Part shown: piece after piece, positions 1,262 to 27,532 of the stretch | How the letters are laid out: each line of letters starts with the position of its first letter | How positions within the stretch are numbered: the stretch's first letter is position 1 | Assembly: GCA_045633025.1 (NCBI GenBank) | Contig: JAZQXS010000058.1 | Location: 1-41,589 of the forward strand | DNA: 41,589 nucleotides | DNA from: Eubacteriales bacterium | GTDB taxonomy: Bacteria; Bacillota; Clostridia; Oscillospirales; CAG-272 | Direction of reading: 5' to 3' | Position numbers and translations under genes: made by a program | The notes under the pieces: generated by a model | Seen by the model: only the letters and a program-made list of their open reading frames with translations | What the model was told of the DNA's origin: nothing | Database searches by the model: none

Positions 1262-1304
1262 ATGTTTTCCTTTCCGGGGAGGCCGCAGCCTCCCCTAAAA
1301 AATA

Positions 1305-4300
1305 TTACGACTCTTGGATCCACCTCTGCGCCATCGTGGCCACGTCGTTGTACCCTCCGTACAGCTCCGTTCCCTCCAGCAGCTCCAGGATCCGCTTCAT
1401 TTCGGCGGTGTTATTCTCGTCCCACGCCGCCAGGTACTGCTTTTTCCAGTAGGATGTGATTCCGGATTTCACGGCAGCCTTGGCCTGTGCCTCGGTCTTG
1501 CCTTGCTCCTGCTTGGTGGCCAACAGACAATAGTAGATGTCCTCGAAGTCTTCTCGGTCGCCTCGGGTCAGGGCGTCGTTGAGATCCGATGCGTTGTACA
1601 GAGACTCGGGGTTGTCCTCGTCCTCGTCGGCGGCATCCGCCACAGGTGCCGTCACCTGCTCCGCACTGTCCTTGATGTCCAGCACCTCGTTGTTGATGGC
1701 ACGAATAATCAGGTTTCGATCGAAGCGCCCCTCGCTCTCGATCTGATCGATGATGGATTCGTAGGCCTCCAGCTCGCCCGAGATTTTCGCCTCAGCGGCC
1801 TCGGCGATCCGCTTGTCATTCTCCCGCAACGCGGTTCTCAGAGCCATCTCGGCGGCCTGCTCGCTCTTGTAGCGGGACTTGACACGGTTGTAGTGCGCCT
1901 CGTCTCCGCTCTTGGCGGCCTTGTACAGCTGGTTGGCATTTGTGGTGTCCGCGCCGAACAGATTGGTAATGAGTGAGAATTCGTCGGCCATCGCCGCGGA
2001 GATTCCCTTTCCGGTCGTCCGCTCGCCGCTCATGGCACCCTGTACCAGATTGACCGGCATCATGGCATCGCGTACCAGATTGCGGATGGGCACCCCGAAG
2101 AACGCGCCCACAGCCCCCGCCACCTCAGTGGTTTTCTCCACAGGGGTTCTGGTGGAGCTTGTGATTCGTTCAAATGACTTGAATAGATCCGCAAACAGAG
2201 CCATGTCCGTGCGCTCGATGTCGTAGCCCTTCATCAGGGACATGACGTCTCGGGTGTACGGCAAGTATTCCAATGGGTTGAAGCCCTCCGCCGTCTCGGT
2301 AGCCAGCGTGGCCAGATACTTCTCGGTGTAGGTCTTCTCCTCGTCGTCGTCGCGGGCAGCGTAGATGAGAGACACGGCCAGCGCGTTAAAGATCACCGAT
2401 GCCGCGATAGCTCCTGCTGTCCTCTTCAGAAATGCCTTATCCCCGCGGTTCGCGCGGATGAGGCCGTCCAGCATCATGGAGACAACGGTTGTGGGCTCAG
2501 CCATGAAGGCCGTCGCCATTTTCATGCCCGTGTCCTTGGATCTCATGTACTCGGATCTCGTGAGGGTAGAGTCGTATACCTGAGTACGTCTCACCGCCTC
2601 GGTGAACCGCTTCCCTGCCGCCTCCAGCACCTCTTCGGAATCCATGGGTTTCCCCAGCTTCTCGGCCTGCTCACGCTTGCACGCGTCGAACATCTGGATC
2701 CACGCCAGCTCATCCGCGTAGGCCGCTCCCTTGCCGAAGATCTCGGCGCGGTAGTTGGAGTCGCCTCCATATACGTCGGGCAGGAAGAACGCCTTGGCTC
2801 TCTCTCCCCACGTCTTGTAGTCCTTGGAGTTGAGGTAATCGGCGGTACGTGTTCCCACGCCCGTGTCGTATCCGCCCATCTCCTTGATGGCGGCAACCTT
2901 GGCGTACTTCTTGACTTGCTCCCAGGCCTCCTTGTGTCCCTTGATATCTAAGGCCGCAAGGCTTCGGAAGTGCTTGGGATCGATGTATGCCATCGCCCTA
3001 AAAACGGACGTAGGCTGCTGGACCAGCACCGACAGGGATGCCATGGTGCTTGCCCGCTTAAAGGCTGTAATGCCCTTGTCGATCAGGTTGGCAGCCGCCT
3101 CGCGACGGGCACCGCCGTTGAGATCGCGGATCAGCTGCTCGATGTAGGCGTTGGCCTGTGCGCCGTACTTGGATTCAATGACGGCTTTGAGGGTGGAGTA
3201 CTCCTTCCGCTCCTTGTCCTCGGCCCAGTTTCCGTCCTCGTCGATGATGGCGTTGGATGGCTGGTAGTTGAGCACACGGGTCAGATCCTCCACAGGGAGC
3301 ACGAATGCGTGATAGGTGGCCATGTCGTTGACGTGGCCGGATACAATGGTCATAAAGTCCTGGAGCACCAGCGGATTCTGTGCGTCCGGCACAGTCTCCT
3401 TGGACATGCCTCGGTTCTTGATCTTGGGATCGCCCGTCTTGCCTGTCTGAGATTCCAGATACTCGGACTTGACCTTGATTGGGAAGTAGTGCTCCTCCTT
3501 GAACAGATCCAGCCCGTAGAGCTTCCGGGAGATCTCATTGCCTTTCTCGCCCAGGCTCGTCAGATAGTCCTGGATCTCGGTGGCATACTTCTTCTGCTCC
3601 TCGGTCAGCATACCGGCCAGCTTGCCCATATCCTCCTCGGTCATGGTGTACCGCTCGGTGAGGTTCAGCACCCGCTCGGTGCGGATCTTGCTCTTCTCGG
3701 TGATCTCGGTAGCCCCGGCATCCAGCACGAAGCCTCCGCCCCGCAGGTGTCCCATGGCCTGCTTACGCTTGGCGTACGCGTACAGCGACATCATTTCACC
3801 GACGGTCAGCCTCACGGTCTTACCCTCGCCGTTGGTAAACTCTCGGCGGGTCTTGAGATCCCACGTATCGTAGCCGTACTGTTCCTTCGCCTTGACGATG
3901 ACCTCCCGCGCCTCCAGAACGTCGGTGATCCATACCTCCTCACCGTCCAATACCGATTGGAACAGCTCCATCAGCTTGGGTGATCCGATGGCCTCAAAGG
4001 CCGTCAGGGGCTTCATGTTTTTCCAGAGGAACTCGCGGACGTCTCGGGCGTTTTTGATCTCCATGGACTTGGGAGACAGCCACTTGAGGGGCTTGCTCTC
4101 GGCGGCCTCGCGGCTGGCGGCGTTGCCCCAGTCGGAGACCTGCTCGCCACGCTTCTGCAGGAACAGGTCGTTTGCGCTGTTGATCTGATGGCTCAACGCC
4201 TTGACAAACGTCTCCACAGCTCGGAGGGATTCCAGACCCATCTCCTTCAGCGGCTTGTCTTCTATCGTGTCCACCAGCTTGGACAGCTCCGCCATCGGCC

Positions 4301-7300
4301 CTTCCGGAATCTGCATGTCCTTGGGCAACGTCTCGTTGTACAGCTTGTAAGCGGTATACAAGGCCTCGGCCTGCTTCTTCAAGGGCATGGTCTTGGCTTC
4401 CAAGATCTCGTACTTGGATTTCATGGCATCCAGACGCTCCTGCTCCCGCTCGGTTCTGTCCACCTTTCTCTCCAGCTTTTCGATGCCTGCGGCCAGATCG
4501 CCCATCTCACGGATGTTCTTGCGGTTTTCGTCCCACGCCTTGGGATCTGCGGTCTGCATGATCTTGATAGCCAGGTCGTGCAGCTCCTTGGGCACGTGGT
4601 TGGTCTTGGTTGGATTGTAGAGCTTGGTCTGCAGACTACCCAGCACCCGCATGATCGTCCGCTTTCGGGAGGTCATCTCCTTGCGCATCCGACCTTCCTC
4701 GGCCTTGCGGTTCATTTTCTCCCTGAAGTATCGGTTCTTCTCGTCTGCTTTCTCGTAAGCTCGGCGGTACACAGCGTTCTTGTACTCGGTTGCGTCACGC
4801 CTTGCCTTGTAGACTCTCTCCATGGAGGTTTTGTGGATGGCCGTTTTGTAATCTTGCGCGTCCTGTCTGGCCTTCTTGACCCTCTCGTCTGCTTTCTCGC
4901 GGATTTTGGCTTCTCGTTTGCGGCTCCTTTCTCTCTCGGCTGTAATATGGGCTTTTTCTCTCTCCCTCGTTCTTTCTGCCGATCTTTCCATAGCTGCAGC
5001 CTTTTTCTCCGCCTCACGAAGCAAGCTTCCAAACGGCTTGGTCGATGTCAAAGATAAAAGCTTGTGTTTTTCGTCGCTGATCCTTTCTTTGATTTTGTCC
5101 ATTTCCGCAAGCCAAACGGTCTTTTGCGCCATCGCCCCGTCCAGCTCCTTTGTGATCCATTCGGGTCGGTTTTCTTTATCGTACCCCTTCGCCTTGCTTT
5201 GAAGTTCTTCAATGTTCCGGTTTAAAGCAGCCGTTCTCTTTCTGAGCTCTACAAGGTTGATTTCCAGTTTTGCCAATTCTTCGGCTTTTGCCTTATAGTT
5301 TTTTGCAACCTCGTATTCGTGCTGGCTTTGCGCCGCTTCCATCAAGGCATCCGCCAACATGATGTGATCTTCGATCAGCCGACGTCTCATGTCATCGTTC
5401 CCACCGGCAAACAATGATGCTTCCGCAGTTCTTTTCTCCGCTTCGGGCGCGACTTCATCCAAGCCCTCTACAATGTCAGACAGCCCGGATCTGCGCAACG
5501 CCTCATCAAAAGCGGATACGTCTGCGTTTTCTGGGCTCTCGTCGATGGAGTACATCCTCCCCTCGTCATCACCAACGACCTCCGCTTCCACTCTCTCCAG
5601 TGCTCGCTTGAAGGCAGGGCTCTCTGCTTCGGTCTTTGCCTTTTCCCCGGCGACGTACTTCTCGGTCAGCTCATGGAGCAGATCCGCGTCGAATTCGGGA
5701 ATGACAGGCTCCTGTGGCAGGTAGGTGCCGTCCTTGTCGAACATCTTGAAGTCAAGGAGCAGCTTGTAGTAGCCCTTGGTGTAGACGTACTTGCCATCAG
5801 CGTTGGTGTTGAGGAAGTCGGAGAATCGCGGGCGCAGGCCTCGCTCCTCGCAGACCTTGAGGAACCGCTCCACGAACTGTCTCTCGTTGCGGATGGGGTT
5901 CCCCTCTCGCTCGGCGGCGGCGATCACGTCGGTGTAGACGTTCACGGGCTTGGCCTTGCTTCCGGATTCCAACGGCTTTTCCACCTGCTCGTTCTTGTAG
6001 TTTTTCCACTTGCCGATCTTCTTGATCTGGCGCACCACCTCGGTCTGGCCGGTGTGGAAGGGGATGATGTAGTCGATGAAGTCATCCTCCATGGCGGTGC
6101 GGATATGGTCATCGTTGATTCCTACGAGGATGGTACCGATGTTGGGGTTTCCTCTTGCTACCTTCTTGAAGTCGGGATTGTTGAAGTCGATACCCTCCAC
6201 GGGATCGTAGACCAGAACACGCTCGCCGTTCTTCATCTCGTATCCGAGATCGCCCTTGGGGATCAGGCTGAGGTTACCCTTGGCCTTGGTGTCCTTCATG
6301 AGGAGAGCGAAGCTCGGCACCTTGGTGTAAAACTGGATCTTGATGCCCATGGCCGCGCAGTCCTGCACGGCTTGGATGATGTCGATCAGGTGGAACTCCT
6401 CAAAGTCCGAGAAGGAGAAGACACGGAGGCCGCCGAGATCGTTGATGCGCTTGACTTGATCCTTTCTGTATCTGAGGATCTGCCGTTGGTACTCGGCCTC
6501 GTTGGTAAGCAGTCGTGCCGACGACATGCCTCGTGCATTATTGAAAGCTTTCCACGCTTGGAGAATGTCCTTGTGCTCGGTTTGGAGCTTGTTCATGCCC
6601 TCCACCGTGGTCAGATCCGCGATGGTCGGCACGTAGTCTCCACCCTCCAGCATGGCCATGGCCTTGGCCTGTCCCTTGTTGTAGGCACTTTCCACGTTGT
6701 TCTTGGTATCGTAGTAGGTGTCTCGGTTGCCATTTCTCCATGCTTCTACGGCCCTCTGGAAGGTCTCTGCGATGTAGCCTTCGTTCTGACGGCGATCCTC
6801 CACGTAGCACAGACCGCAGGCCACCTCCAGGCCCTCGTCCACCATGATCTTACGAATGGTGGCGAATTCCTCGGCAGTGAATCGGCGGTTGGGGAACGCC
6901 TGCTGGATTCTCTGCATCATGCGGGTGTACTCTCTGCGCTTGCGGCAGATGTTGGAAAAGTCCAGCGTGCCCTGCTTGTAGTCACTGTTCTTGACGATGG
7001 CAGTGAGACGGCGGTCAGCCTTGCGGTGCGCGTAATCTACCATGTCGTCGCGGAGGATCAGGGTGGCGAGAGAGATCTCGTCCTCGACCCACTTACGGGC
7101 GCGGGACTCGTCTACGCCCAGCTTCTGCACCAAGCGGTTGACGGCATCGTCGATCTCCTGTTCGGTTTTGGGGATGTCGTCCACCGACAGCATGGCTGTG
7201 CCGCTTGTGGGGTCGATCATGACGCCGTCTTTTTTGTCAAAAGAATTTTCGGTGTAGGTATTGACAAAACCATCTGGTTGTGTTATACTATCATCGTAAG

Positions 7301-10300
7301 ACATTCGGTCAGTTCGCAGGAGGCCTTTCACGGCTGTATTGCTGAGACCGGGTGTCTTATTCTCTTTGAATTCTATAAGGTATTGATACTGCTCTTTTCC
7401 TTTGTCCCGGATGTTGAATGTGACTGTGTAAGGAACGCCATCAAAAACGATTTCGTTTCTGAACTTGTACCAGTATTTTACGTTTTCATGTGCTTTGTTT
7501 TTAGGCTTGATGGCAGGGTTTGCGTAGCTGTCTTCTGTATTGGTTGCAGTGGGATCGTATGTTGAAGTAGCAAGAATATCAGCTAAATCATACAGAGAGC
7601 TTATTTTTGCTTTATACTCCTCGCCCTCTACTCTTTGATCGCCGTAAATATTTTTTTGTGCCGTGAAACGATCACCCAAAATGCGAATTTTCTTGACATC
7701 GGTCTTAAGCTCTACCGCTCCAAGGTTGAAAATTGTCGCAATTCTTTCTTTGAACACCTTGATACGCTCGTCCATGTCCACGCTTTTATCAAATCCGGAC
7801 ACATAGCAGGGTCTACCGTCTTTGGTCTCGCCAATATAAGAGAATACTTTTCTTTCTTCTCCTTGCGCAGCCTCTCCAACCTCCGCCGTTCTCGTTCTCT
7901 CCCCCGCCTCTCTCACGCCCTCCGTGAACAACCGCTCGATCTCCTCCAGAGACTCCACCGTCTCCTTCAGCACCTGCGCCGTCTTGGAGGCTTGGTTCAG
8001 GCTCTCCCAGCTTCGGCGGATCTGCCCGATGATATCGAAGATCCAGTCGCGGATCTTCTCCCACAAGGTCTTGTCGGTCTTGGCCAGCTCCTCCAGCACC
8101 TTGCCGTCGGTCAGAACCAGCTCCATGCCCTCGGCCACCAGCTCCTCGCGGGCAAGGGCGTTGGCCTCGGCTACGGTCATGGTGTCCGTGACAATGCCCA
8201 GCCGCTTGAGGGATGCCAGTTTGTCTGCGATGGCTTCTTCGGCATCCACGCCCATCTGCTCCAGCACGAAATCGGCCAGAGCCTCAAATTTTGCAGGCGA
8301 CCACTCCTTGATGTAGTGGGCCACCTCGTGCCCGAGTGTGTAGAGTGATATGTTCTTTCCGTCGCGCATGGCGTTGATGTTGACGTGCAGGCGGTTGGTC
8401 TTGGTGTCGTAGTAGCCGTTGACCGTCCGTCCCTTCTTGTCCGTGATAGCCTGCTCGATCACGATCTCCGTTCCCAGCACCTCGGCCAGCACCTCGGCGG
8501 CCTTATAGGCGGCGTACTGTTCATCCGACAATGTCTTGATTTCCAGCCCCTTGCCCCGTACCACGGTTCCCTTCTTGCCTGCCATCTCGGCGGGCTTTTT
8601 CTTTGCCTTGGCTTTCTCCTCGGCAGCCTTGCGCTCGGCCTCCTCGGTCTCCCGACCGAACTTCATGGCAGCTTCCCGGGCTTCGGGTCTCATGCGGGAC
8701 AGAGGCGACTCCTCACCCACGTCGAATCCGTATCGTCCGTAGATGTGGACACCGTCCGACCACGCCGCCGCGAACTCTTCGGGGGTCATGTCCGTTCCTT
8801 TGCGGAACTCGTCCAGCATGGCCTGTACCGATCCGCGGGGGACACTCTCTTTCACAGCAGCCTTCAAGAGGGCTTGTTCTGCCTCCCCTGTGGCTCCAAG
8901 AGCCGCTATATCCGTATCAGCAGGCATCCCTGCCCATACGTCCTCCTGCGCCTCCACGGGGCTCTGCTGGGCTTCTGCGGTCTCTCCCGCCATCTCCCGC
9001 ATCATGCTCTCCAGAACAGCTCGACCCACCGTGGAGGTCAGAATATCGTCCACGTTGTTCTCCAGATCGGCCACCGTGTAGTCGCTTCTCTTCGCTCCTC
9101 TCTTGGCGGCCTCAGCATTGATCACGTCCACGATCTGCTGCTTTTGCTCAGGCTCTGCGTCCATCAGGATGGCCTCGTAGGTCTCCATCTGATAGGCCAC
9201 CTGCGCCAAGTACATGTTGCCTCTCAGCTCACCGAGGAGAGCGTCCGCCGCGCTGCTGGTAGCCCGCGTAGGATCTGCCATGATCTGACGGTAGGCAGCC
9301 ACGTTCCGACGGAGCTTGTCCGCCATCTCCCCCGCCGCCGATGCCGCCCGGCCTCTCTTAATGCCGCCAACCACACCCGTGGCCGCGCCCTTTATCTTGT
9401 CAGCGGTGCTTGCGGCCTTGTCGGCCTTCTCGGCAGCCTTGGTCTCCTTCACCTTGGTCTGTGCCCGCTCCGATCCCTTGATCAGCATCTCGGCGGTATG
9501 CAACACCTGCTCAACCTCGCCGCCCTCGCGAATCGCCTTGCCTGTCTTGCGCGCCGACTCAAAATTGATCGCCGCAGGCCCGGCCGTCATCAAGCCGCCC
9601 GAGAGGGCACCGACAACGCCTGCGTACAGAACGTTCCCGAGATTGAATTGCGCGTTCTCGTCGACGTTGAAAAGTCTCAGCAAAGCAGGATCCACCGCTT
9701 CGGAGATCGCCTCCTCTGCAAACTCTCCCGCCGCGCCCTTTGCCGTATCGACCAAGACAGAGGCGATCATAGACTTACCGCCGACCTTAGCCGCGCTCTT
9801 GGCTACGTTGACTCCCGTTCTTTTCAAGGCAGCCGAGCCAAGGCTCTTGACCGCGTTTACGCCCGCGCCCAGCTTGCTCTCCAGAATTCCTTCAACAGCT
9901 CCTACCGTCGCACCGTAGCCGAGCTCTTTGAGCCCCACGTCACCTGTCCGACCGGCGGCAGAGGATACGCCCTGCGACCCAATGGAAGCAAACATCAGCG
10001 GCTTTCCAACGATCGGAATCGCGGACAGCAAACCATAGCTGACGCTCTGACCCGCGCCGCTCACCACGTCACCCGCAAGCTGCATTCCCTTTCCGGGATT
10101 GTACCACTCGGTAAGGCTCTGCTGGGCGTCGGCTGTGCGGTTATCAAGGAATCGGTATTTGGCCATCTCTGTGTCACCGCGCAGGATGTCTCGGCTGGCA
10201 GCGGCAATATCCAGAACGCCCTCACCGACTCCGGCAAGACCAAGACCAAGTGATCCTGCCACGTACCCCGCACCTTCTGCAAGGCCGCCTCGGTTTCTTT

Positions 10301-10385
10301 CCGCATCGGAATAGGCGCTCACGTATTTCTTCTTCTTCGGCTCTTCTCTCTTCACACCGCTGTATGCCGATACGTACTTACTCAT
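1305..10385 (-). CDS. Giant 3,026-aa multidomain virion protein; candidate injected internal/ejection 'polyvalent' protein with a zincin metallopeptidase motif
   Basis: Uninterrupted 9,081-nt ORF joined TAAATG to the upstream gene. Gly/Ala-rich hydrophobic N-terminus with duplicated KYVSAYS. HEVAH at aa 686-690 (nt 8316-8330). AT-rich module at aa ~845-1060. Cys-containing central domain (ACGLCYVEDRR ... IPFHTGQ). Coiled coil of ~400 aa rich in K/E/R. Hydrophobic C-terminal segments. Confidence 0.6.
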   Translation of the reverse strand: MSKYVSAYSGVKREEPKKKKYVSAYSDAERNRGGLAEGAGYVAGSLGLGLAGVGEGVLDIAAASRDILRGDTEMAKYRFLDNRTADAQQSLTEWYNPGKGMQLAGDVVSGAGQSVSYGLLSAIPIVGKPLMFASIGSQGVSSAAGRTGDVGLKELGYGATVGAVEGILESKLGAGVNAVKSLGSAALKRTGVNVAKSAAKVGGKSMIASVLVDTAKGAAGEFAEEAISEAVDPALLRLFNVDENAQFNLGNVLYAGVVGALSGGLMTAGPAAINFESARKTGKAIREGGEVEQVLHTAEMLIKGSERAQTKVKETKAAEKADKAASTADKIKGAATGVVGGIKRGRAASAAGEMADKLRRNVAAYRQIMADPTRATSSAADALLGELRGNMYLAQVAYQMETYEAILMDAEPEQKQQIVDVINAEAAKRGAKRSDYTVADLENNVDDILTSTVGRAVLESMMREMAGETAEAQQSPVEAQEDVWAGMPADTDIAALGATGEAEQALLKAAVKESVPRGSVQAMLDEFRKGTDMTPEEFAAAWSDGVHIYGRYGFDVGEESPLSRMRPEAREAAMKFGRETEEAERKAAEEKAKAKKKPAEMAGKKGTVVRGKGLEIKTLSDEQYAAYKAAEVLAEVLGTEIVIEQAITDKKGRTVNGYYDTKTNRLHVNINAMRDGKNISLYTLGHEVAHYIKEWSPAKFEALADFVLEQMGVDAEEAIADKLASLKRLGIVTDTMTVAEANALAREELVAEGMELVLTDGKVLEELAKTDKTLWEKIRDWIFDIIGQIRRSWESLNQASKTAQVLKETVESLEEIERLFTEGVREAGERTRTAEVGEAAQGEERKVFSYIGETKDGRPCYVSGFDKSVDMDERIKVFKERIATIFNLGAVELKTDVKKIRILGDRFTAQKNIYGDQRVEGEEYKAKISSLYDLADILATSTYDPTATNTEDSYANPAIKPKNKAHENVKYWYKFRNEIVFDGVPYTVTFNIRDKGKEQYQYLIEFKENKTPGLSNTAVKGLLRTDRMSYDDSITQPDGFVNTYTENSFDKKDGVMIDPTSGTAMLSVDDIPKTEQEIDDAVNRLVQKLGVDESRARKWVEDEISLATLILRDDMVDYAHRKADRRLTAIVKNSDYKQGTLDFSNICRKRREYTRMMQRIQQAFPNRRFTAEEFATIRKIMVDEGLEVACGLCYVEDRRQNEGYIAETFQRAVEAWRNGNRDTYYDTKNNVESAYNKGQAKAMAMLEGGDYVPTIADLTTVEGMNKLQTEHKDILQAWKAFNNARGMSSARLLTNEAEYQRQILRYRKDQVKRINDLGGLRVFSFSDFEEFHLIDIIQAVQDCAAMGIKIQFYTKVPSFALLMKDTKAKGNLSLIPKGDLGYEMKNGERVLVYDPVEGIDFNNPDFKKVARGNPNIGTILVGINDDHIRTAMEDDFIDYIIPFHTGQTEVVRQIKKIGKWKNYKNEQVEKPLESGSKAKPVNVYTDVIAAAEREGNPIRNERQFVERFLKVCEERGLRPRFSDFLNTNADGKYVYTKGYYKLLLDFKMFDKDGTYLPQEPVIPEFDADLLHELTEKYVAGEKAKTEAESPAFKRALERVEAEVVGDDEGRMYSIDESPENADVSAFDEALRRSGLSDIVEGLDEVAPEAEKRTAEASLFAGGNDDMRRRLIEDHIMLADALMEAAQSQHEYEVAKNYKAKAEELAKLEINLVELRKRTAALNRNIEELQSKAKGYDKENRPEWITKELDGAMAQKTVWLAEMDKIKERISDEKHKLLSLTSTKPFGSLLREAEKKAAAMERSAERTREREKAHITAERERSRKREAKIREKADERVKKARQDAQDYKTAIHKTSMERVYKARRDATEYKNAVYRRAYEKADEKNRYFREKMNRKAEEGRMRKEMTSRKRTIMRVLGSLQTKLYNPTKTNHVPKELHDLAIKIMQTADPKAWDENRKNIREMGDLAAGIEKLERKVDRTEREQERLDAMKSKYEILEAKTMPLKKQAEALYTAYKLYNETLPKDMQIPEGPMAELSKLVDTIEDKPLKEMGLESLRAVETFVKALSHQINSANDLFLQKRGEQVSDWGNAASREAAESKPLKWLSPKSMEIKNARDVREFLWKNMKPLTAFEAIGSPKLMELFQSVLDGEEVWITDVLEAREVIVKAKEQYGYDTWDLKTRREFTNGEGKTVRLTVGEMMSLYAYAKRKQAMGHLRGGGFVLDAGATEITEKSKIRTERVLNLTERYTMTEEDMGKLAGMLTEEQKKYATEIQDYLTSLGEKGNEISRKLYGLDLFKEEHYFPIKVKSEYLESQTGKTGDPKIKNRGMSKETVPDAQNPLVLQDFMTIVSGHVNDMATYHAFVLPVEDLTRVLNYQPSNAIIDEDGNWAEDKERKEYSTLKAVIESKYGAQANAYIEQLIRDLNGGARREAAANLIDKGITAFKRASTMASLSVLVQQPTSVFRAMAYIDPKHFRSLAALDIKGHKEAWEQVKKYAKVAAIKEMGGYDTGVGTRTADYLNSKDYKTWGERAKAFFLPDVYGGDSNYRAEIFGKGAAYADELAWIQMFDACKREQAEKLGKPMDSEEVLEAAGKRFTEAVRRTQVYDSTLTRSEYMRSKDTGMKMATAFMAEPTTVVSMMLDGLIRANRGDKAFLKRTAGAIAASVIFNALAVSLIYAARDDDEEKTYTEKYLATLATETAEGFNPLEYLPYTRDVMSLMKGYDIERTDMALFADLFKSFERITSSTRTPVEKTTEVAGAVGAFFGVPIRNLVRDAMMPVNLVQGAMSGERTTGKGISAAMADEFSLITNLFGADTTNANQLYKAAKSGDEAHYNRVKSRYKSEQAAEMALRTALRENDKRIAEAAEAKISGELEAYESIIDQIESEGRFDRNLIIRAINNEVLDIKDSAEQVTAPVADAADEDEDNPESLYNASDLNDALTRGDREDFEDIYYCLLATKQEQGKTEAQAKAAVKSGITSYWKKQYLAAWDENNTAEMKRILELLEGTELYGGYNDVATMAQRWIQES

Positions 10386-12035
10386 TTACCGACCTCCTCT
10401 GCTGTAATAGCTAAGCAGCTCCTTCATGGATTTTTCCTGATCGCTTGTAAGGCCCAGTTGCTTGCGGTACCAGTCCCAATGAGGCAGTATCGTCGATTGC
10501 ACCAGGCCCGCCACCTTTCCGATGTCCATTATGCCGTTCGGGCTAATAATTCCTCCGATCGCGACGGTGCCAACATCCACGGCCGCCTTTGCCGTTTTCT
10601 GCAGCCACTTCGGCATGTCCTTCTTGTCCAGCCACTGCTCCGCCTTCTCGCCCAGCGTGATTGCTTGCTGGTTTATCAGCTCCGGCGCGTTCAGCTCTCT
10701 GGCCGCCTCAGCCATAAGCGCGTCGTAGGTCTCCTCGCTCATGTAGCCTCTGTCGCGGTAGTTTTGCCATGTGGTCACCATGTCGCATACTTCGGAGGCA
10801 GGACGGTCAATCTCACCCTCTTCAATTGCCTCCTTGACGTTGGCCACGTCACCCAAGAGGATACCCTTGTAGTCTTCCTCGGTGATCGCGCCTTCCTTAC
10901 GGATCACGCCCGCCCGTTCAAGAACCAAAGCTTTTCGCTTTCCGTCATCGTAGGCCGCCCACGTCTCCTGAGGAATATCCAGTGCGCTCCATGCCGACTC
11001 CAGATCCTTTAGTGCATCAGTCACGACGGTTGCCGTCTCTCGGCTTACTTCCGACTGTACTTTCTCCCACGTTCCGGCAGACTTAGCCGCGTTCATCAGA
11101 TCCACCGCACCGCTCATCGTGGGCTTCATCGCGAACTGGTTGACCGCATCCGTAGTAGCCGCCGCGGTCTCGGCTGTCAGCTGATTCATGATCGCATCCA
11201 CGTTGATCTCAGGATTCCCCGCCGCAATCGTGTTGAGCCTTGCACGCAAGGCTTCCTTGTTGGTACCCGTGTACCAGCCCTCATTGGCCGCCTGAATCAT
11301 CAGATTGTAGGTGTCCTCGTTCATGCCGCTGGCTCGTATCGCTGCCTCGGCCTTTTCGACCTCTTCCAACGAGGCGGCATCCGCATACAGCTGCTTCGTG
11401 GCGTTGTACCAGTCAAGAGCCGACCGGTTCTCTGCCTCAAACTCAGACCGCGCCGCCTCATAGAGCGCAAGCTGCTGGTCGTCCAGCTCTCGCATGGCCT
11501 GCCTGCCCGCCTCGTCTGCGGCAAGAGTGGCGTAGGAGGAGCCGTAGCCGCCTGTGGCCGCCTTGGCCTGGGCATAGGCTCTGCCGGAGGCCAGTCGGGC
11601 GTTCTCCTCGGCCTGCTTCTGCACGATGGAGTAGAGAGGGCTGGACTTGGCGTCGTACTTAAATTTGCGGTTCTGCATTTCCAGCAGTCCCTGTAGGGCG
11701 GACTCCATCAGCTGCTTGGTGTAGGCCGTGGTCATCTGGGACTGGGTCAGAGTACCGCCGCCTGCGCTCGCCCCGGTATCGGGATTGGCGATGCCCACGG
11801 TCACGTTTTGCCCGGTGCTTACCGCGGCCGCCCCATTGCTCGCAGGCTTCTGCACCACGTGAGGAGGCTTTACGGCTATTCCCTTGACCGTGGGCACGGC
11901 GGATGAGTTAGTAGGTGTTGCAGCTGCGTTTTGCCCAACGCCCGACGCGCCTCCTCTCGATAGGGGCTGCGCAGCTCTTGCCGCCTTATCCTGCAGGTAG
12001 TCGTCAAGGCGGTACTTCTGTTTACTTCCGTTCAT
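10386..12035 (-). CDS. Internal virion / tail-associated protein (549 aa), function unknown
   Basis: Complete ORF abutting the giant gene. Ala/Gln-rich helical composition. Its position between the nozzle-like gene and the giant gene parallels T7 internal core proteins. Confidence 0.4.
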   Translation of the reverse strand: MNGSKQKYRLDDYLQDKAARAAQPLSRGGASGVGQNAAATPTNSSAVPTVKGIAVKPPHVVQKPASNGAAAVSTGQNVTVGIANPDTGASAGGGTLTQSQMTTAYTKQLMESALQGLLEMQNRKFKYDAKSSPLYSIVQKQAEENARLASGRAYAQAKAATGGYGSSYATLAADEAGRQAMRELDDQQLALYEAARSEFEAENRSALDWYNATKQLYADAASLEEVEKAEAAIRASGMNEDTYNLMIQAANEGWYTGTNKEALRARLNTIAAGNPEINVDAIMNQLTAETAAATTDAVNQFAMKPTMSGAVDLMNAAKSAGTWEKVQSEVSRETATVVTDALKDLESAWSALDIPQETWAAYDDGKRKALVLERAGVIRKEGAITEEDYKGILLGDVANVKEAIEEGEIDRPASEVCDMVTTWQNYRDRGYMSEETYDALMAEAARELNAPELINQQAITLGEKAEQWLDKKDMPKWLQKTAKAAVDVGTVAIGGIISPNGIMDIGKVAGLVQSTILPHWDWYRKQLGLTSDQEKSMKELLSYYSRGGR

Positions 12036-14889: not shown

Positions 14890-15966
14890 TTACCACGAGG
14901 CGGTGTTGAGATCGGTTGCGGCGATGGAACCGGAATTGAAAGAACCGGTCATCACCTCGATAACGGCCAAAGGATCCTTGACTTTGGCGCCATAGGCCAT
15001 CTTCCAGCCCACGGTAGCTCTCTGATCCAGAGGATCGGCAGTGCCGCCGGAGCCCAGACCCTTACCGATGGTCTTGATGCCTCCCTCGGCCAGCTTGATC
15101 TGGTCAACGGCGTCTGCGCCCATCATAATGGCGTGGTATACGCCTGCAGAGGACGCGCCGTCCTTAGTGACCAGAACCGTGGAGGTCTCCACGAAACGGC
15201 ATCCGGAGATGCGGCCGATCTCACCGGTCTGCAGAGGAGTGGGATCTGCGTACTGGTGCATAGCCTTGTACTCCTCGTCGTTGGTCAGATCATACCACTG
15301 GTCGGGATGAATGAACATGACGTAGTCGCCGCCGACGGCAGGGCGAATGTTGTTGCGCTTCATGGTGGCAACCAGCTTCTTGACAACGGCCACGGTCAGC
15401 TTGTGGTTAGCGGTAATGGCCGATGCGGCCGTGGCGGCAGTTCCCCCGCTCTCACCGTAGGCAGTAGCCACCTCGGGGTCGGCCAGGATGTCGTCGCGGA
15501 GCAGGGCGTTCTTGATCTCGGCGGACTGGTAAGCCTGTGCCTCGCGGGCAACGCCCATAAGATCGTAGATGGAGGTGCCCAGAGCCACGTCGGTGAACAT
15601 GACGTAGTCACCATGCTGCTCCACCTGACCGGTAACGAAGCTCAGGGAGATCTTGCTGGGATCGGGGGTCTTGCCCTCGGTCAGCTTGGTGTTCTTGACA
15701 GCGATGCGCACCTTCTTGGGGAAGCGTGCAGTACTGCCGCTGTGGGCGGGAATATTGGTAGAGCCGACGTACTGGTCGAACACCAGCGCTGCCTTGTGGA
15801 TCTCCACGAACTTGGCGTCGTTGGCCTTCTGAAACGCGCCGCTGATACCATCGCTGCCGGTGGTCATCATGTTGGTAGCCGCGTTCTCGGGAACGACGGT
15901 AGCCGCGAACAGCTGCAGGTCAATGGTGATAGCCTCGATAGTGAGGCCGTTGAACTTGGTTTTCAT
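14890..15966 (-). CDS. Major capsid protein with a short N-terminal propeptide ending LQLFA
   Basis: Position after the scaffold and a ~358-aa size. The GGAGAA RBS favours the ATG at 15966 over 15978. N-terminus MKTKFNGLTIEAITIDLQLFA|ATVV carries a Prp/L27-type cleavage motif. Confidence 0.75.
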   Translation of the reverse strand: MKTKFNGLTIEAITIDLQLFAATVVPENAATNMMTTGSDGISGAFQKANDAKFVEIHKAALVFDQYVGSTNIPAHSGSTARFPKKVRIAVKNTKLTEGKTPDPSKISLSFVTGQVEQHGDYVMFTDVALGTSIYDLMGVAREAQAYQSAEIKNALLRDDILADPEVATAYGESGGTAATAASAITANHKLTVAVVKKLVATMKRNNIRPAVGGDYVMFIHPDQWYDLTNDEEYKAMHQYADPTPLQTGEIGRISGCRFVETSTVLVTKDGASSAGVYHAIMMGADAVDQIKLAEGGIKTIGKGLGSGGTADPLDQRATVGWKMAYGAKVKDPLAVIEVMTGSFNSGSIAATDLNTASW

Positions 15967-16014
15967 ATTTTTCTCCATTCTGCGGAGGGTGTTTGTGTTT
16001 TGTTTTCTTGGATT

Positions 16015-16884
16015 TTAGTGCGTCATAAAGGATTCGAGGAAGTCGTCCAGAGCCTTTCCTGTCAGCTTGGAAGGATCCACGGATGCGTTCCCCGTGTAGC
16101 CCGCCGCCCCCTCTCGCGGTCTTCCTTCGTTGGCCTCGCGCTCGGCCAGAGCCGCAGCTCTCGCCTCCTGCTTGGCAACCTCGACGGCCGCCGCGTGAAG
16201 CTCCCTGCCGAAGGCCATCTCGTATGCCTCCCGCATAGAGAAATTTCCGGTGTCGTACAGCGCCTTGAATGCGGGATTCTTCTGTGCCTTTGCCATGTCA
16301 AAGTCGGGATAGGCCTCTTTGACCTCCTGCTCCTGCGCTTGCGCACGCGCAAAAGCATCCGCCCTAACCTGTTGCGCCGCTCTCGCTCTGCTCAAAGCCT
16401 CGTTTGCATCCGCCGCGACGAGGCTTTTCGCCACGTCCTCCGTCACGCCCATCTCTTTTGCTTTTGCTCTTACGTGAGCAGGATCATTGAGGATGGCCTT
16501 GGCAAAGGCCTCGGGGTCGTCTACGGATACGCCGTACCGCTCGGCCACGGCCTCTAAATGGGACGCGAGGGCATCGTACTTGCCCGCCTTGTCCACAGAG
16601 CCTTGGTAGCGCTTGGCGGCCGCCTGGTGGTGCATGAGGCCGTGCTTCTTGAGGAAAGCGTTGCGGCTCTCGGTGTCCATCTGCTCGAAGAAATCCTGTT
16701 CGGCGGTACTACCGCCCGTTCTTGTGGTGGTATCGGTACCGGTGCCGCCCGCAGGCGCTCCCATGTCACCGCTCCCGGACGAGTCGCCGCCTGTGCCGCC
16801 CTCGCCGCCTCCCTCCGCGAAGAACTGGAGAGACAGTCTCAGCAGCTTGCCGTCCTGCCACGTGGTGTTATTGTCGAGTCGCAT
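16015..16884 (-). CDS. Scaffolding protein with N-terminal propeptide ending LQFFA
   Basis: AAAGGAGG RBS lies 9 nt before ATG 16884; the track ORF start at 17028 would overlap the Prp gene. N-terminus is MRLDNNTTWQDGKLLRLSLQFFA|EGGGEGG. Gly-rich linker, then Ala/Glu/Lys helical protein. Confidence 0.7.
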   Translation of the reverse strand: MRLDNNTTWQDGKLLRLSLQFFAEGGGEGGTGGDSSGSGDMGAPAGGTGTDTTTRTGGSTAEQDFFEQMDTESRNAFLKKHGLMHHQAAAKRYQGSVDKAGKYDALASHLEAVAERYGVSVDDPEAFAKAILNDPAHVRAKAKEMGVTEDVAKSLVAADANEALSRARAAQQVRADAFARAQAQEQEVKEAYPDFDMAKAQKNPAFKALYDTGNFSMREAYEMAFGRELHAAAVEVAKQEARAAALAEREANEGRPREGAAGYTGNASVDPSKLTGKALDDFLESFMTH

Positions 16885-16963
16885 ATATCTGCGCCTCCTT
16901 TCCCCTCGTTTCGTGAGGTCTCCGTAAGTGTATATAGTAGCCCTTGTCGCGGGCAAGTCGTCT

Positions 16964-17290
16964 TTAGTACCGCTCAACGCGGAGCGAGTCCGGAAAGCTC
17001 CCGGCGTAGGCGTCGATGGCGGCCTCAACGGGAGTCAAGTACCGCTCAACGCGCTTGTAGTCCTTGGCGGTGGCCAGCTTAACGTCTACGATGCCGTCTC
17101 CGTACTGCACACGGATGATGCCGTCGAGGATCTTGTTTCCCATGGCCGCCACGGCCTTGGAGTATCCCAGCATCTGGGAGGATATCGCCGCGCACAGAAG
17201 GCTCTGCCCCTGTGCAGTCTCCGCGTGTCCTTTGGCCTCTACGGCGATCCTCCGTGCAGTCTTGTCCTTCAGGATTTTGATCTCGATCAT
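16964..17290 (-). CDS. prp: Prp-like (ribosomal-processing cysteine protease family) prohead maturation protease
   Basis: 108 aa. KGHAETAQGQSLLCAAISSQ matches the His...Cys dyad region GHA-x(n)-VCAA/G-S of Prp (DUF464). Lies between the portal and scaffold genes. Confidence 0.75.
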   Translation of the reverse strand: MIEIKILKDKTARRIAVEAKGHAETAQGQSLLCAAISSQMLGYSKAVAAMGNKILDGIIRVQYGDGIVDVKLATAKDYKRVERYLTPVEAAIDAYAGSFPDSLRVERY

Positions 17291-21869: not shown

Positions 21870-22796
21870 TCAAAGCGCTCCAAACGCCGCACGGCGTGCC
21901 GCAATGTCTCGCCGCTCGTCCCTGCGTCTTCTCGTCTCTCTCTTTCCTGCCTCGGTGTCCTTTCGGTACAGCTTGAGGTGGATCACCCACTCCCCGAACT
22001 GCTCGATATGTACCGCGCTCGCCTCGGCCAGATAGTAGCCGGGATACCGCTCCTCGATGGCCGCGAACCGCTCCTCCGTGGGAACCACACCCTCACCGAT
22101 GTGGGCGTTGATGTCCTCAATCTCCTTGGCCAGTTCCTCTACAGAGTCCTTGCCGATCTGACCGTTGTGCTCGGCGGTCTCGGGCTTGACCATGTTGCGA
22201 CTGGCGTACCAATGGTGCTCGCCTTTTTCAAGCCCGCCCTGCTTGCTCACGTACTCAGTCATTGCCTCGAAGCCCTTCTCCGACGCCTGCAGCGTGCGGG
22301 CGTTGACGATCTGCGCCTTCCCCCACAGCTCTTTTATTCGCTGCTCGGAGAGCCCGCCCGTGATGTTAAGGTGCACGTGGAATCGCTTCCCACCGTCGTG
22401 CCCCTCGATCACGTACACGTACTTCAGAGGGAGCAATCTCCCCTTGTTGTGCTCCGCCTCCCAGACAGAGGGCTCTCGCTTCTCCCAGGCGCGCTTGACG
22501 CGTCGAAGAAACTTGTCCATCTCGGCCTTGACCTCCGCTCTGGATTCCGGCTTGTGCCCCTCGTCAAAGGTCAGCAGCACCCACAGATCCCGCCCTTCCG
22601 CAAAATTGGCCACGATCATCCGCTCAAAAGCCATCTTTCGATTCCGCTCGTTGACCAGTTCCTGGCTCTCCTTGGTAGGCTTGCCCAGGGATCTCCGCTG
22701 TCCCTTCTTGGCCTTGCACCGACAAACGGTAACGTCGCAGTACTCCAATCCCGGATTGTGCACCGTGTCCCGATAGTAGCTCACCATCGCATTCAT
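21870..22796 (-). CDS. rep: HUH-superfamily rolling-circle replication initiator (Rep)
   Basis: Motif I VLLTFD; motif II RFHVHLNI (HVH at nt 22371-22379); motif III AMTEYVSKQ (Tyr codon 22251-22253). GGAGAG RBS lies 5 nt before ATG 22796; an alternative GTG is at 22835. Confidence 0.65.
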   Translation of the reverse strand: MNAMVSYYRDTVHNPGLEYCDVTVCRCKAKKGQRRSLGKPTKESQELVNERNRKMAFERMIVANFAEGRDLWVLLTFDEGHKPESRAEVKAEMDKFLRRVKRAWEKREPSVWEAEHNKGRLLPLKYVYVIEGHDGGKRFHVHLNITGGLSEQRIKELWGKAQIVNARTLQASEKGFEAMTEYVSKQGGLEKGEHHWYASRNMVKPETAEHNGQIGKDSVEELAKEIEDINAHIGEGVVPTEERFAAIEERYPGYYLAEASAVHIEQFGEWVIHLKLYRKDTEAGKRETRRRRDERRDIAARRAAFGAL

Positions 22797-22845
22797 GCCA
22801 TCTCTCCTTTCGCTCTTGTTTCTGATTTTTTTCACACGGGGATGC

Positions 22846-24979: not shown

Positions 24980-25361
24980 GCAGCCATCTCCCTTCATAAA
25001 ATACCCACGCCCGGCCATCCTCGTCCACGTGCACCGTGATCTGCTCCTCGTTGGTGGCGATCACCAGGGCGGCGCGGAAGGTCTCCTCGTCGGGGGCCTC
25101 CTCGGCCTCGGTGAACTCGGTCGCGGCCAGCTCGGCAAGCACCGCCTCCAGCTTCTCCCCGCCGATCCACTTCTGCTCGTATGGCCTGGCCAGGTCGGGT
25201 ATGTAGTAGCAGACCGTCACATCGGAGGCGGCGGGGAGTCCAAACGGCTCGCCCTCCCGGTCTCTCCGAAACCGGACTCCCAGCACCAGCAGCGCGAAGG
25301 CCAGCACCAGAACCAACAAGACCATCAGCCGCAGGGCGTAGTCCTTACAGGCTTGTTTCAT
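24969..25361 (-). CDS. Signal-anchored/secreted small protein (130 aa)
   Basis: ATGA overlap with the parB-like stop. N-terminal hydrophobic LRLMVLLVLVLAFALLVLGV. Confidence 0.45.
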   Translation of the reverse strand: MKQACKDYALRLMVLLVLVLAFALLVLGVRFRRDREGEPFGLPAASDVTVCYYIPDLARPYEQKWIGGEKLEAVLAELAATEFTEAEEAPDEETFRAALVIATNEEQITVHVDEDGRAWVFYEGRWLHET

Positions 25362-27181
25362 GCACCCGCCTCCTTCATCAACGTGTGGAATCCCCATCTT
25401 TTCTTTTCGTTGAACCAACGGTCAATGCATACCTCGCAGGATATATCGTCGCCGTTCTCATCAACCGTGCAGAGAATGTCGCAGCAGAACCAATCGTGCA
25501 GCTTGTGCGTCAGCTCCTCAACGGTTTCGCATGCGGGGATCAGTTTCAAAAGCTCCGACGCTCTATCCGGATCTCTGCCTCGGTCAAACGCGGCCACCCA
25601 CTTCGCCAGCTGCTCCTTGCTCAACAGCTTCAACGCCTCAAATCGGGTCATCTCCTTGCCCGGCTCGGCAGCGACTTCTGCGGCCTCGTTCGCCCCGACC
25701 TTTACCTCCCCCGGATCCTTGCCGCCGTTGGCGTAATACATGGGGCTTGTTCCATCCAGCAGGGCCCGCTCATAGGGCTCCACCTCGTATCCGAGCGCCT
25801 CCAGGAGCTTGTAGATCAGATCCAGCTTATCACTTTTTTCGTAATCGCCCATGTACTGCCTGGCGGTCTTGTCGCCGCTGTACTGCCACGTGTGGAACGG
25901 ATGGTGGCCTCCTCCGTTGTTCTCGATCCCCGCATAGATCGCCCACAATGCGGTCTGCACAGGGTGTCTGCGAGCATCATTTTTAACGTCGTTGAGGAGG
26001 TCATTGTCAGTCTTCCCCTCATGATCTGTCCAGTCACCGAGGAATTCCTCCAGATCGTCTCTTCCGGTGTACGGGTTTCCGTTATTATACGCCCAGTAGT
26101 CCACCGCTCCGGCCATGAACGCGCCGAACACAGCGGTACACGTGGCGGAGTCCAGACCTCCCACCCAGAACTTCCGCTTTTCAGCCAGTTCCTCAAATAC
26201 CTGCTTCAAGCCGTCTGCAACGCGCTTGCGCTCGTTCCATTCGGCATCCCATGCGGCCTTGGCAGGATCCTCGTTCACAGGATCTGCGCCGGTCTTGGCG
26301 AACAGTCGCACCTCGGAGGGATACTCTTCCAGCCAGTAGGCTACCTCCCACTCGGGCTTTACGGTTCCGTCCAACTTCGCGCCGAGGAACTTCTCGTTGG
26401 AGGGCTTGGCGGACTTGGAAACGCTCACAACATGCTTCCATTCGCCCGAATACCGCTCCTTCTGCTCAAGCCTGCGCAGACCCATGCTCTCCATGACCTC
26501 CGTCCAGGCCGACTCCTGCTCTCGCTTCTTCTCGATATCCTTGGCGTTCTTGACCTGCCACTCAAAGTTGGCCGTTCCAATGGCTCCGAGAGCCTTGTCG
26601 CGCAGCTCCTCATCGTTGATCTCGCCCACCTTCTCCAGATCGCCAATGGAGATCTGCTTGCCCTTGGCCGCCTTTTCCAGCTGCTCGGGGGCAATGGCCG
26701 CCACCTTCAGGCGGCGGCGCACCGTGGACTCGCTGATACCCGTCTTCTCGGCGATCTGGGCGGCACCCAGACCCAGATCCATGGAGAGCTGACGCAGACC
26801 CTGCGCCTGCTCCACGGGGGTCAGATCGGTTCTCTGCAGGTTCTCGGTCACCATGGTTGCCAGCTGATCCTCGTAGCTCATGTCCGCGATCACGCAAGGC
26901 ACCTCGGGCAGTCCTGCCAGCTTGGCCGCGCCCAGACGTCTGTGACCGATGACCGCCATGTAGTAGCCGCCGTCGATCTGCTCCGCGGTGATCCCCAGCT
27001 CAGCGATCCGCTCGGCGGGAAGATTCCCGACCTCCACCACCGTCAGGTTCTGCATGATTCCATTTGACTTGATGCTCTCGGCCATCTCGGTGAGATCCCC
27101 CAGCTCCTTGCGGGGGTTCTTGGGGTGCGGCAGGATCTTCTCCGTCCGCAGGTATACGAGGTTGTTTCTTACGGTTTCCAT
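25358..27181 (-). CDS. ParB/Srx-like N-terminal domain protein (607 aa) with HTH and long C-terminal extension
   Basis: KILPHPKNPRK and VIGHRRLGAAKLAG motifs of the ParB-like nuclease domain. HTH segment AAQIAEKTGISESTVRRRL. Confidence 0.75.
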   Translation of the reverse strand: METVRNNLVYLRTEKILPHPKNPRKELGDLTEMAESIKSNGIMQNLTVVEVGNLPAERIAELGITAEQIDGGYYMAVIGHRRLGAAKLAGLPEVPCVIADMSYEDQLATMVTENLQRTDLTPVEQAQGLRQLSMDLGLGAAQIAEKTGISESTVRRRLKVAAIAPEQLEKAAKGKQISIGDLEKVGEINDEELRDKALGAIGTANFEWQVKNAKDIEKKREQESAWTEVMESMGLRRLEQKERYSGEWKHVVSVSKSAKPSNEKFLGAKLDGTVKPEWEVAYWLEEYPSEVRLFAKTGADPVNEDPAKAAWDAEWNERKRVADGLKQVFEELAEKRKFWVGGLDSATCTAVFGAFMAGAVDYWAYNNGNPYTGRDDLEEFLGDWTDHEGKTDNDLLNDVKNDARRHPVQTALWAIYAGIENNGGGHHPFHTWQYSGDKTARQYMGDYEKSDKLDLIYKLLEALGYEVEPYERALLDGTSPMYYANGGKDPGEVKVGANEAAEVAAEPGKEMTRFEALKLLSKEQLAKWVAAFDRGRDPDRASELLKLIPACETVEELTHKLHDWFCCDILCTVDENGDDISCEVCIDRWFNEKKRWGFHTLMKEAGA

Positions 27182-27187
27182 TTTTCT

Positions 27188-27532
27188 TTATCCTTCCTTT
27201 TGTTCTTTAAGTTTCCTTTTTTCTGCATCGGTCATAATTGCGACCAGCACGGCCGCAAAAAGCCAATCCTCGTTCTGGAACTCGTAGCACTCTATACGAT
27301 CATTTTCGCGTATCTCGAGCCTTATGTCCACTTTGTACTTGACATCTATGGGATCTGATACGCTTGATTTTTTTGGCGTACAGGTGATGCTAACTTTTGT
27401 CCCTAATCCTATCATTTCTCTTGACTTAAACTTGGTGCATCGTATATCTGCCGTGTCACCGCAAAGCACCCTTCTGAAAGAGCAAATTTTAAGGCATTCT
27501 TCGTTGTTTGTGCAGTCTTCGCATCGTGCCAT
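27188..27532 (-). CDS. Cys-rich small protein (114 aa)
   Basis: ATG 27532 lies 1 nt after the upstream stop; an alternative GTG is at 27541. Contains CEDCTNNEECLKIC. Confidence 0.4.
   Translation of the reverse strand: MARCEDCTNNEECLKICSFRRVLCGDTADIRCTKFKSREMIGLGTKVSITCTPKKSSVSDPIDVKYKVDIRLEIRENDRIECYEFQNEDWLFAAVLVAIMTDAEKRKLKEQKEG

Follow-up and report, generated by a model that had tools for sequence, protein, structure and literature searches.

What does a single protein of 3,026 amino acids (aa) do among the virion genes of a phage? The question is raised by positions 1 to 41,589 of contig JAZQXS010000058.1 from a Eubacteriales bacterium (CAG-272), a stretch of 41,589 nucleotides (nt) that is referred to as the window. 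One gene of 9,081 nt, termed here the giant gene, takes up 21.8% of it and lies on the minus strand (Table 1); nucleotide positions refer to the window and residue numbers to the encoded giant protein. The giant protein is probably a polyvalent-type virion protein that combines a conserved delivery chassis with an exchangeable cargo slot, situated between a zincin-like peptidase domain and a helical spacer, for effectors that would be injected into the host cell. Its slot is composed of two modules: the AT-rich, LPD3-like module A and, behind it, module B, which to judge from conservation and a predicted structure is enzyme-like and belongs to no family described so far.

Reading frame, chassis, and slot

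The original prediction, made from the sequence alone, described an uninterrupted reading frame of mosaic build. The list of open reading frames (ORFs), the translation, the start codon, and the ribosome-binding site bear out the uninterrupted frame, and the motif strings are found where they were placed: ACGLCYVEDRR at residue 1189, VFSFSDFEEFHLID at residue 1322, and INDDHIRTAMEDDFIDYIIPFHTGQ at residue 1423. The TAA of the preceding gene (10386–10388) abuts the ATG of the giant gene; the coupling of the two genes is tight. A protein search with the giant protein as query returned 219 relatives. The best 120 of these 219 are the listed relatives, to which all counts per part refer; they measure 2,168–3,145 aa and stem from contigs of mostly 40–47 kb.

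There is next to no probability that so long a frame is an artefact, meaning several genes joined through an error in assembly or sequencing, or else a decaying prophage gene. Nothing positive speaks for it, the one related observation being the short “solo” module B proteins described further below, which lie on 2- to 3-kb contigs of low coverage. Against it stand the proper ribosome-binding site and start codon, the same order of parts in 120 independent listed relatives, and a 2,953-aa orthologue present on two near-complete contigs. In addition, the ratio of nonsynonymous to synonymous substitution rates (dN/dS) toward an orthologue amounts to 0.07–0.26 across all alignable segments, demonstrating purifying selection throughout. 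The build shared by the 120 relatives and the selection on every alignable segment rule out an assembly artefact, and the same two observations speak against a gene that falls apart into several upon resequencing, the outcome named beforehand as refuting. The artefact explanation is effectively refuted already.

The architecture of the family was derived by mapping the BLAST coverage of the listed relatives onto the query. Herein, an N-terminal core including the zincin-like domain and a C-terminal core are widely shared, and the parts in between are patchy (Table 1). Depending on the relative, the interval from the zincin to the C-terminal core measures between 193 and 1,176 aa. Sequence identity is discordant along the protein: relative P0010 is 45% identical over the N-terminus, 94% over the zincin, 98% over module B, and 52–63% over the C-terminal core, and relative P0006 is 78%, 64%, 65%, and 93–98% identical over the same segments. 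Likewise, the synonymous divergence (dS) from one orthologue spans 0.21 to 1.3 between segments. Since slot length differs among relatives, and segment identities and dS differ along the protein, the middle region is regarded as a swappable slot, and the giant gene as a mosaic made by recombination, its breakpoints lying where modules meet. The mosaic build of the original prediction thus holds.

The relatives also reveal which modules are exchanged. Precomputed Pfam marks are found on ~49 of the 120 listed relatives, namely ART-PolyVal (~32), PBECR3 (~10), LPD3 (8), MuF_C (5), and LPD23 (2). At the variable region of the query, PBECR3 occupies residues 906–1035 of P0010 and P0017, and P0024 carries ART-PolyVal; the slots of other relatives contain MuF_C, LPD23, or LPD3 together with ART-PolyVal. 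The comparison of related phages, proposed as a check together with the prediction, hence places all these domains between the zincin and the C-terminal core. For the query itself, scanned as a whole protein and in nine segments, no match above threshold is obtained in Pfam, NCBIfam, or PADLOC, and searches of Protein Data Bank (PDB) sequences with phmmer and with profiles of module B, of the zincin alignment, of the whole protein, and of the family return only coiled-coil and designed-repeat noise.

The chassis begins with a duplicated peptide. Its two copies, separated by a linker of lysines, are maintained in relatives with a motif that is specific to the lineage (YVNPHAG/YINPHSG, HVSAYRA/HVSAYLA, GLIALGK/GLIALGQ, or KHVLAHS twice). 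The best pair of heptapeptides in the N-termini of relatives (first ~35 residues) scores 25.2 on average, compared with 16.6 in shuffled sequences, and the two copies co-vary across lineages, which suggests a paired docking or capsid-targeting signal. The following Gly/Ala-rich, partly hydrophobic region contains a hydrophobic stretch at residues 117–137 and the invariant residues G151, E165, E221, E224, and E225. A Gly/Ala-rich hydrophobic N-terminus with duplicated KYVSAYS had been foreseen; the copies start at residues 3 and 20.

Two other parts of the chassis were foreseen with less precision. The helical spacer, predicted as a K/E/R coiled coil of ~400 aa with internal repeats, does contain the repeats (KARQDAQDYK at residue 1838 and KARRDATEYK at residue 1860), but its length is ~275 aa. 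Over this spacer, the family profile matches only coiled-coil proteins in the PDB. The C-terminal core, which defines the family, matches PHROG 22978 (no function assigned) with an expectation value (E) of 3e-215 over residues 1819–2899. It contains many invariant polar residues, exhibits a dN/dS of 0.08, and has no relative among PDB sequences, the search with the family profile included. A large C-terminal region is thus present as predicted; of the hydrophobic helices ascribed to it, only one is strongly hydrophobic (residues 2655–2678).

The zincin-like domain and the two cargo modules

The zincin-like domain carries the motif HEVAH, of which H686, E687, and H690 are invariant among the 120 listed relatives. 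Further glutamates in a later helix (E747/E748 and E755) show full or almost full invariance in 21–40 aligned members. The region is weakly matched by PADLOC CapP (E 1.2e-4), and among 21 members several zincin families of Pfam appear below threshold: DUF6782 in 10 of 21, in addition to YgjP-like, M91, M78, SprT-like, and MPTase-PolyVal, the last in 2 of 21 members with E 0.15 at best. An AlphaFold2 model of residues 610–1053 has a mean predicted local distance difference test (pLDDT) score of 58.6, with 65–85 in the zincin part, where helix, three strands, HExxH helix, and more helices follow each other in the order expected for a zincin. Foldseek of this model against the PDB gives anthrax lethal factor in all six top matches (E 0.011–0.06, probability ≤0.90), short of significance. 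The tests of sequence and model are each weak but agree with one another, and the HExxH domain is accepted as a putative zincin-like peptidase, in agreement with the original prediction.

Module A stands out by its base composition. Its fraction of guanine and cytosine (GC) is 0.41, and 0.43 at third codon positions (GC3), compared with 0.57–0.61 and 0.73–0.80, respectively, in the neighboring parts; the helical spacer is also lower (GC 0.505, GC3 0.59). Together with its occurrence in few relatives, this agrees with the AT-rich inserted module foreseen at residues ~845–1060. Four relatives that are otherwise 50–70% identical carry near-identical copies, and a second variant in other relatives is 27–30% identical to the type of the query. 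In a related phage (L001; P0001 residues 840–1045), the module is equally AT-rich (GC 0.41–0.42 in both) at a dS of ~1.3. The low GC, being kept despite this divergence, is a persistent property of the cassette and not simply a sign of very recent transfer. The dN/dS of module A is 0.09.

The best Pfam match of the query is LPD3 (PF18798), at 17.6 bits relative to a cut-off of 27, and three variants of module A (27–83% mutual identity) each match this family at 17–18 bits. Aligned by hhalign with genuine LPD3 domains from relatives, module A reaches a probability of 87.5% (E 3.6e-6, 65 columns). LPD3 has no assigned function (PMC5512222). A PBECR3 RNase, as carried at the same position by P0010 and P0017, was considered for module A and rejected: alignment shows different modules, and the type of the query matches LPD3. 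Foldseek against the PDB with the model of zincin and module A returns nothing for the latter. In the wider superfamily of module B, 56 of 69 representatives have module B right behind the zincin (within 30 residues), so module A is seen as an insertion into that junction.

Module B is strongly constrained. Among the 37 listed relatives that have it, identity is 65–98%, higher than in the flanks, and its dN/dS of 0.065 indicates strong purifying selection. Invariant residues include C1147, K1149, R1150, C1190, C1193, E1196, R1198, and R1199 in the cysteine region and GGLR 1318–1321, S1324, S1326, D1327, D1335, Q1338, D1342, Y1353, T1354, K1355, and H1444 in the later part. The three cysteines are spaced C1147-x42-C1190-x2-C1193, with an aromatic residue after the CxxC. 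The AlphaFold2 model is confident (pLDDT 88.7, predicted template modeling score 0.86); strands and helices alternate in its C-terminal two-thirds, and the invariant polar residues follow strands. A Pfam scan of 28 members and searches of NCBIfam, PADLOC, and PDB sequences yield no significant match, and Foldseek of the model gives nothing at E≤0.001 in the PDB and a single significant match in BFVD, an uncharacterized homologue. The alternating β/α core and the invariant cysteine triad suggest a metal-dependent enzyme. On conservation and model, module B is therefore best regarded as an enzyme-like, probably metal-dependent domain whose family has yet to be described.

An exhaustive search of 1.84 billion representatives retrieved 2,078 clusters with module B at E≤1e-3, of which 760 at E≤1e-30. 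The 148 best representatives were analyzed for length and context: 132 reach 2,000 aa or more (almost all carriers span 2,000–6,000 aa), and about half share the zincin and the C-terminal core. By tblastn, module B is not found in 50,697 GenBank phages or in 72,556 PLSDB plasmids. Among 185,579 species genomes, it occurs only in metagenome-assembled genomes (MAGs) of gut and rumen anaerobes, namely Clostridia and Bacteroidales. Relatives at 43–56% identity lie on MAG contigs of both groups (L004, L008, L009, L010, and L013 versus L003, L005–L007, L011, and L012), meaning that the domain crosses bacterial phyla; some of the MAG contigs with module B measure 240–310 kb, consistent with integrated prophages. 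By these comparisons, module B is not specific to one lineage; within a metagenomic superfamily of very large size, it is what usually accompanies the zincin. The central domain had been called unassignable and a possible new enzymatic effector. Foldseek and AlphaFold, suggested as checks, provide a confident model with no significant PDB fold match, and the domain indeed looks enzymatic and matches no family; it is, however, not particular to this phage. The “solo” forms of 614–627 aa (L017, L018) lie on their short contigs with abutting ORFs and probably represent pieces of giant genes, not enzymes that stand alone.

What chemistry module B may perform is where a first alternative comes in. 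It could be a very divergent radical S-adenosylmethionine (radical SAM)-like or other Fe–S enzyme with a split cysteine motif, carried in the virions of phages of strict anaerobes and modifying a host or phage macromolecule on entry, which we consider quite improbable. The three invariant cysteines, with a CxxC followed by an aromatic residue, and the predicted strand/helix alternation as in a β/α core would fit, and several independent weak signals agree: Foldseek matches to CteB (E 0.36, template modeling score 0.2), viperins, Elp3 (E 0.015), and a COG1032 Fe–S oxidoreductase, as well as an NCBIfam twitch-radical SAM model over the cysteine region (E 0.15). All of these are at noise level, however, with template modeling scores of ~0.2 and probabilities ≤0.18, and generic triosephosphate isomerase (TIM) barrels score as well. 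The canonical CX3CX2C motif is absent, no radical SAM family of Pfam is matched in 28 members, and the cysteine site could just hold structural zinc. The distribution cuts both ways: presence solely in gut and rumen anaerobe MAGs and absence from GenBank phages and plasmids would suit an enzyme of this kind, but the restriction may only mirror the host range of the phage lineage. A few radical SAM enzymes have noncanonical cysteine spacings, making a distant relation of module B conceivable. The boldest version is a long shot: module B would found a new enzyme superfamily, possibly of Fe–S or radical type with a split cysteine motif, that phages of strictly anaerobic gut bacteria inject with the genome and that alters a host nucleic acid, a nucleotide signal, or a defense component within seconds of entry. 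To our knowledge, such injected chemistry is not yet known for any virion protein.

Genomic setting and proposed delivery

The giant gene was predicted to occupy the slot of ejection proteins, and its neighborhood agrees with that. Genes for the large terminase subunit TerL, portal, Prp-type protease, scaffold, major capsid protein, two small proteins, a 637-aa protein, and a 549-aa protein precede it in this order on the same strand. The 637-aa protein matches a PHROG “internal virion protein,” and the adjoining 549-aa protein is without an assigned function; the gene after the giant gene is fiber-like and carries Phage_fiber_rpt in relatives. The giant gene hence lies among virion genes in the usual position of internal or ejection-protein genes. 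The portal is of the P22 type in relatives, and no tail-tube, sheath, tail-chaperone, or tape-measure genes are detected. The presence of an integrase, a ParB-like protein, and a replication initiator indicates a temperate lifestyle. The element is a temperate, podovirus-like phage of gut Clostridia.

Within this setting, the giant protein would work as follows. The chassis—twin peptide, Gly/Ala-rich region, zincin, spacer, and the C-terminal domain of ~1,100 aa—would bring the protein into the capsid and take it out through the tail together with the DNA. Recombination would exchange effector modules in the slot between zincin and spacer. Once ejected, the zincin would probably free or activate the cargo, and module B would probably be a metal-dependent enzyme whose host substrate is rich in phosphate, a nucleic acid or nucleotide, and whose action serves host takeover or counter-defense. 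Packaging of the giant protein, delivery with the DNA, proteolytic processing, a counter-defense role, and the enzymatic target are what we infer from the genes. Cleavage of the giant protein by the Prp-type protease was considered and rejected: a site of the LQFF↓A or LQLF↓A type, present in the scaffold and the major capsid protein, is absent from it.

A different use of the protein, which we regard as unlikely, is that of an envelope-penetration device—an ejectosome, a tail-associated lysin, or a tape-measure-like ruler—in which module B would be a hydrolase of wall or surface polysaccharides that opens the way for the DNA. The position of the giant gene between tail-proximal genes and the fiber gene, the long helical spacer, and the membrane-type helix fit such a device, and the weak Foldseek matches of module B are mostly β/α barrels, including the glycoside hydrolases GH10 and GH99. 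A conduit role has moreover been proposed for gp47 of phage phi24B (bioRxiv 10.64898/2026.04.10.717836). However, no tape-measure, lysin, or glycosidase family is matched in Pfam, PHROGs, or NCBIfam, and neither the P22-type portal nor the lack of detected tail-tube and chaperone genes suits a ruler. An ordinary tape-measure protein devoid of enzymatic modules, which the original prediction had named as its counterexample, is thus not what the searches return, and enzyme-like modules are present. Of the 120 listed relatives, 83 lack module B, and it occurs with both Clostridia and Bacteroidales, whose envelopes differ; sister proteins hold intracellular-type effectors (ART, RNases) in the same slot; and a wall hydrolase would not usually have an invariant cysteine triad together with many Arg and Lys residues.

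The reading as a delivery chassis with exchangeable cargo has its own weak points. The domains of the query pass no curated Pfam or NCBIfam threshold, so that the zincin and LPD3 assignments depend on sub-threshold, though concordant, signals, and the model of zincin and module A has low overall confidence (pLDDT 58.6). Module B is without a functional homologue, which makes its target a guess, and its absence from 83 of 120 listed relatives means that it is dispensable for infection as such. Finally, there is no cultured relative. GenBank phages yield no DNA match, and tblastn of the query gives one weak protein match there, to the C-terminal core, and none to module B.

Coordinates of all features are collected in Table 1. 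The hairpin behind the giant gene has no T-run after it and may be a transcript-stability or attenuation element. Islands of low GC (0.47–0.49, compared with ~0.58 elsewhere) are also present outside the giant gene at ~27000–28000, ~31500–33500, and ~34500–36000 and may be other acquired cassettes. Both ends of the window lie inside minus-strand genes, the fiber-like gene running off position 1 and another ORF (41059–41589) entering at 41589. Circular closure was considered and rejected, as the reading frames at the two ends do not join cleanly; ~1–3 kb of the phage is therefore probably missing (relatives, 42–45 kb).

Table 1. Coordinates of the giant gene, its parts, and other features of the window (fractions denote listed relatives)
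Feature	Residues	Nucleotides	Strand	Remarks
Giant gene, probable polyvalent-type virion protein		1305..10385	(-)	3,026 aa plus stop; ATG start; from ORF list and translation
Ribosome-binding site GAGGAGG		10393..10399	(-)	8 nt upstream of giant-gene ATG; read from sequence
N-terminal core including zincin	1–~840			~100–119/120 across the region
Twin peptide KYVSAYS, two copies	3–9 and 20–26	10308..10379	(-)	KKKK linker between copies
Gly/Ala-rich, partly hydrophobic N-terminal region	~30–290	9516..10298	(-)	118–119/120
Zincin-like metallopeptidase domain	610–800	7986..8558	(-)	HEVAH at residues 686–690 (nt 8316–8330)
Module A, divergent LPD3-like	~845–1053	7227..7853	(-)	AT-rich (GC 0.41, GC3 0.43); LPD3 profile signals; ~16/120
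Module B, unannotated enzyme-like domain of ~520 aa	1054–~1625, core ~1098–1565	5511..7226	(-)	From conservation and AlphaFold2 model; 37/120
K/E/R-rich helical, coiled-coil-like spacer	~1626–1900	4686..5510	(-)	22-aa duplication; variable among relatives
C-terminal conserved core, family-defining chassis	1901–3026	1308..4685	(-)	PHROG 22978; 120/120
Transmembrane-like helix	2655–2678	2352–2423	(-)	Followed by invariant RDDD...EK cluster
GC-rich hairpin GGGGAGGC-tgcg-GCCTCCCC		1276..1295	(-)	Between giant-gene stop and fiber-like gene; read from sequence
Fiber-like gene		ATG 1261, extends past position 1	(-)	Next gene after giant gene
Major capsid protein		14890–15978	(-)	...IDLQLF↓AATV, classic Prp cleavage site
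Scaffold		16015–17028	(-)	...LSLQFF↓AEGG, classic Prp cleavage site
Prp-type cysteine protease		16964–17290	(-)	Between portal and scaffold genes
Replication initiator		21870–22835	(-)	
ParB-like protein		25358–27181	(-)	607 aa
Tyrosine integrase		34112–35188	(+)	

Comparison with polyvalent and other ejected proteins

Polyvalent proteins, presumably the earliest proteins of a phage to act inside the infected cell, have seldom been the subject of experiments. The family of the giant protein is abundant in gut and rumen metagenomes, has no cultured representative, and displays a clear separation of chassis and cargo. Module B is the commonest cargo of this family, with >2,000 protein clusters in phages associated with Clostridia and Bacteroidales. 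Being constrained, confidently modeled, and without a relative in the libraries searched, it is a well-delimited and readily expressed target for a new enzymatic activity, possibly one directed against defense. The chassis, in turn, is a natural scaffold for understanding how proteins of 300 kDa are packed into, and expelled from, a podovirus-like capsid with ~42 kb of DNA.

The Dar proteins of phage P1 (DarB and DdrB) are large, packaged in the head, and injected with the DNA against host defense; DdrB contains a C-terminal zincin and is proteolytically processed (PMC5512222). Unlike the giant protein, they carry methylase-helicase and ParB-like payloads and belong to a myovirus, and there is no sequence relation between the two.

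Another comparison is with gp47 of the Shiga toxin (Stx) phage phi24B, a podovirus, a protein with 2,811 aa, LPD domains (LPD5, LPD1, and LPD38), and MuF_C (bioRxiv 10.64898/2026.04.10.717836). Proteomics detected gp47 in virions, although the cryo-EM (cryo-electron microscopy) map does not show it, and it was proposed to be an encapsidated ejection protein (bioRxiv 10.64898/2026.04.10.717836). Both are giant proteins of podovirus-like phages, one with LPD domains and the other with an LPD3-like module. They differ in their domain sets and in that the place of gp47 in virions is supported by experiment, whereas that of the giant protein is predicted; tblastn of the query against GenBank phages reveals no gp47-like relative.

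The virion RNA polymerase (vRNAP) gp50 of the podovirus N4 measures ~3,500 aa and is packaged and ejected (PMC13434306; PMC5512222). Its HExxH subdomain adjoins a mostly helical domain of ~1,125 aa without structural relatives (PMC13434306), and the region containing the metallopeptidase (MPTase) is required for encapsidation (PMC13434306; PMC5512222). The giant protein resembles gp50 in belonging to a podovirus-type phage, in having an HExxH motif near a long domain, and in its central part as the proposed enzymatic payload. Unlike gp50, it has its zincin ahead of the payload and comes from a temperate phage of a Gram-positive anaerobe. No RNA-polymerase module is found in it by Pfam, PDB-sequence, or fold matches, and no similarity to gp50 is detectable, even with the family profile against PDB sequences.

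Polyvalent proteins as a class are defined by domains such as MPTase-PolyVal, ART-PolyVal, PBECR, and LPDs, with the zincin peptidase as a hub domain, and are typically located among virion genes (PMC5512222). The giant protein departs from the class in that its domains remain below every curated threshold; that no Pfam model, the LPD models found in relatives among them, matches its N-terminal core, its C-terminal core of 1,100 aa (PHROG 22978), or module B; and that it contains no MuF or portal fusion. It shares with the class (Iyer et al. 2017, PMC5512222) the very large size, the multidomain build, and the place among virion genes. Furthermore, it combines disparate domains in one polypeptide—a zincin-like peptidase, an LPD3-like module, the enzyme-like module B, and the chassis—and its domains are shuffled between orthologues. 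The resemblance to polyvalent proteins noted at the outset is thus supported by the setting, by the mosaicism, and by the signature domains ART-PolyVal, PBECR3, MuF_C, LPD3, and LPD23 that sister proteins carry in the same slot.

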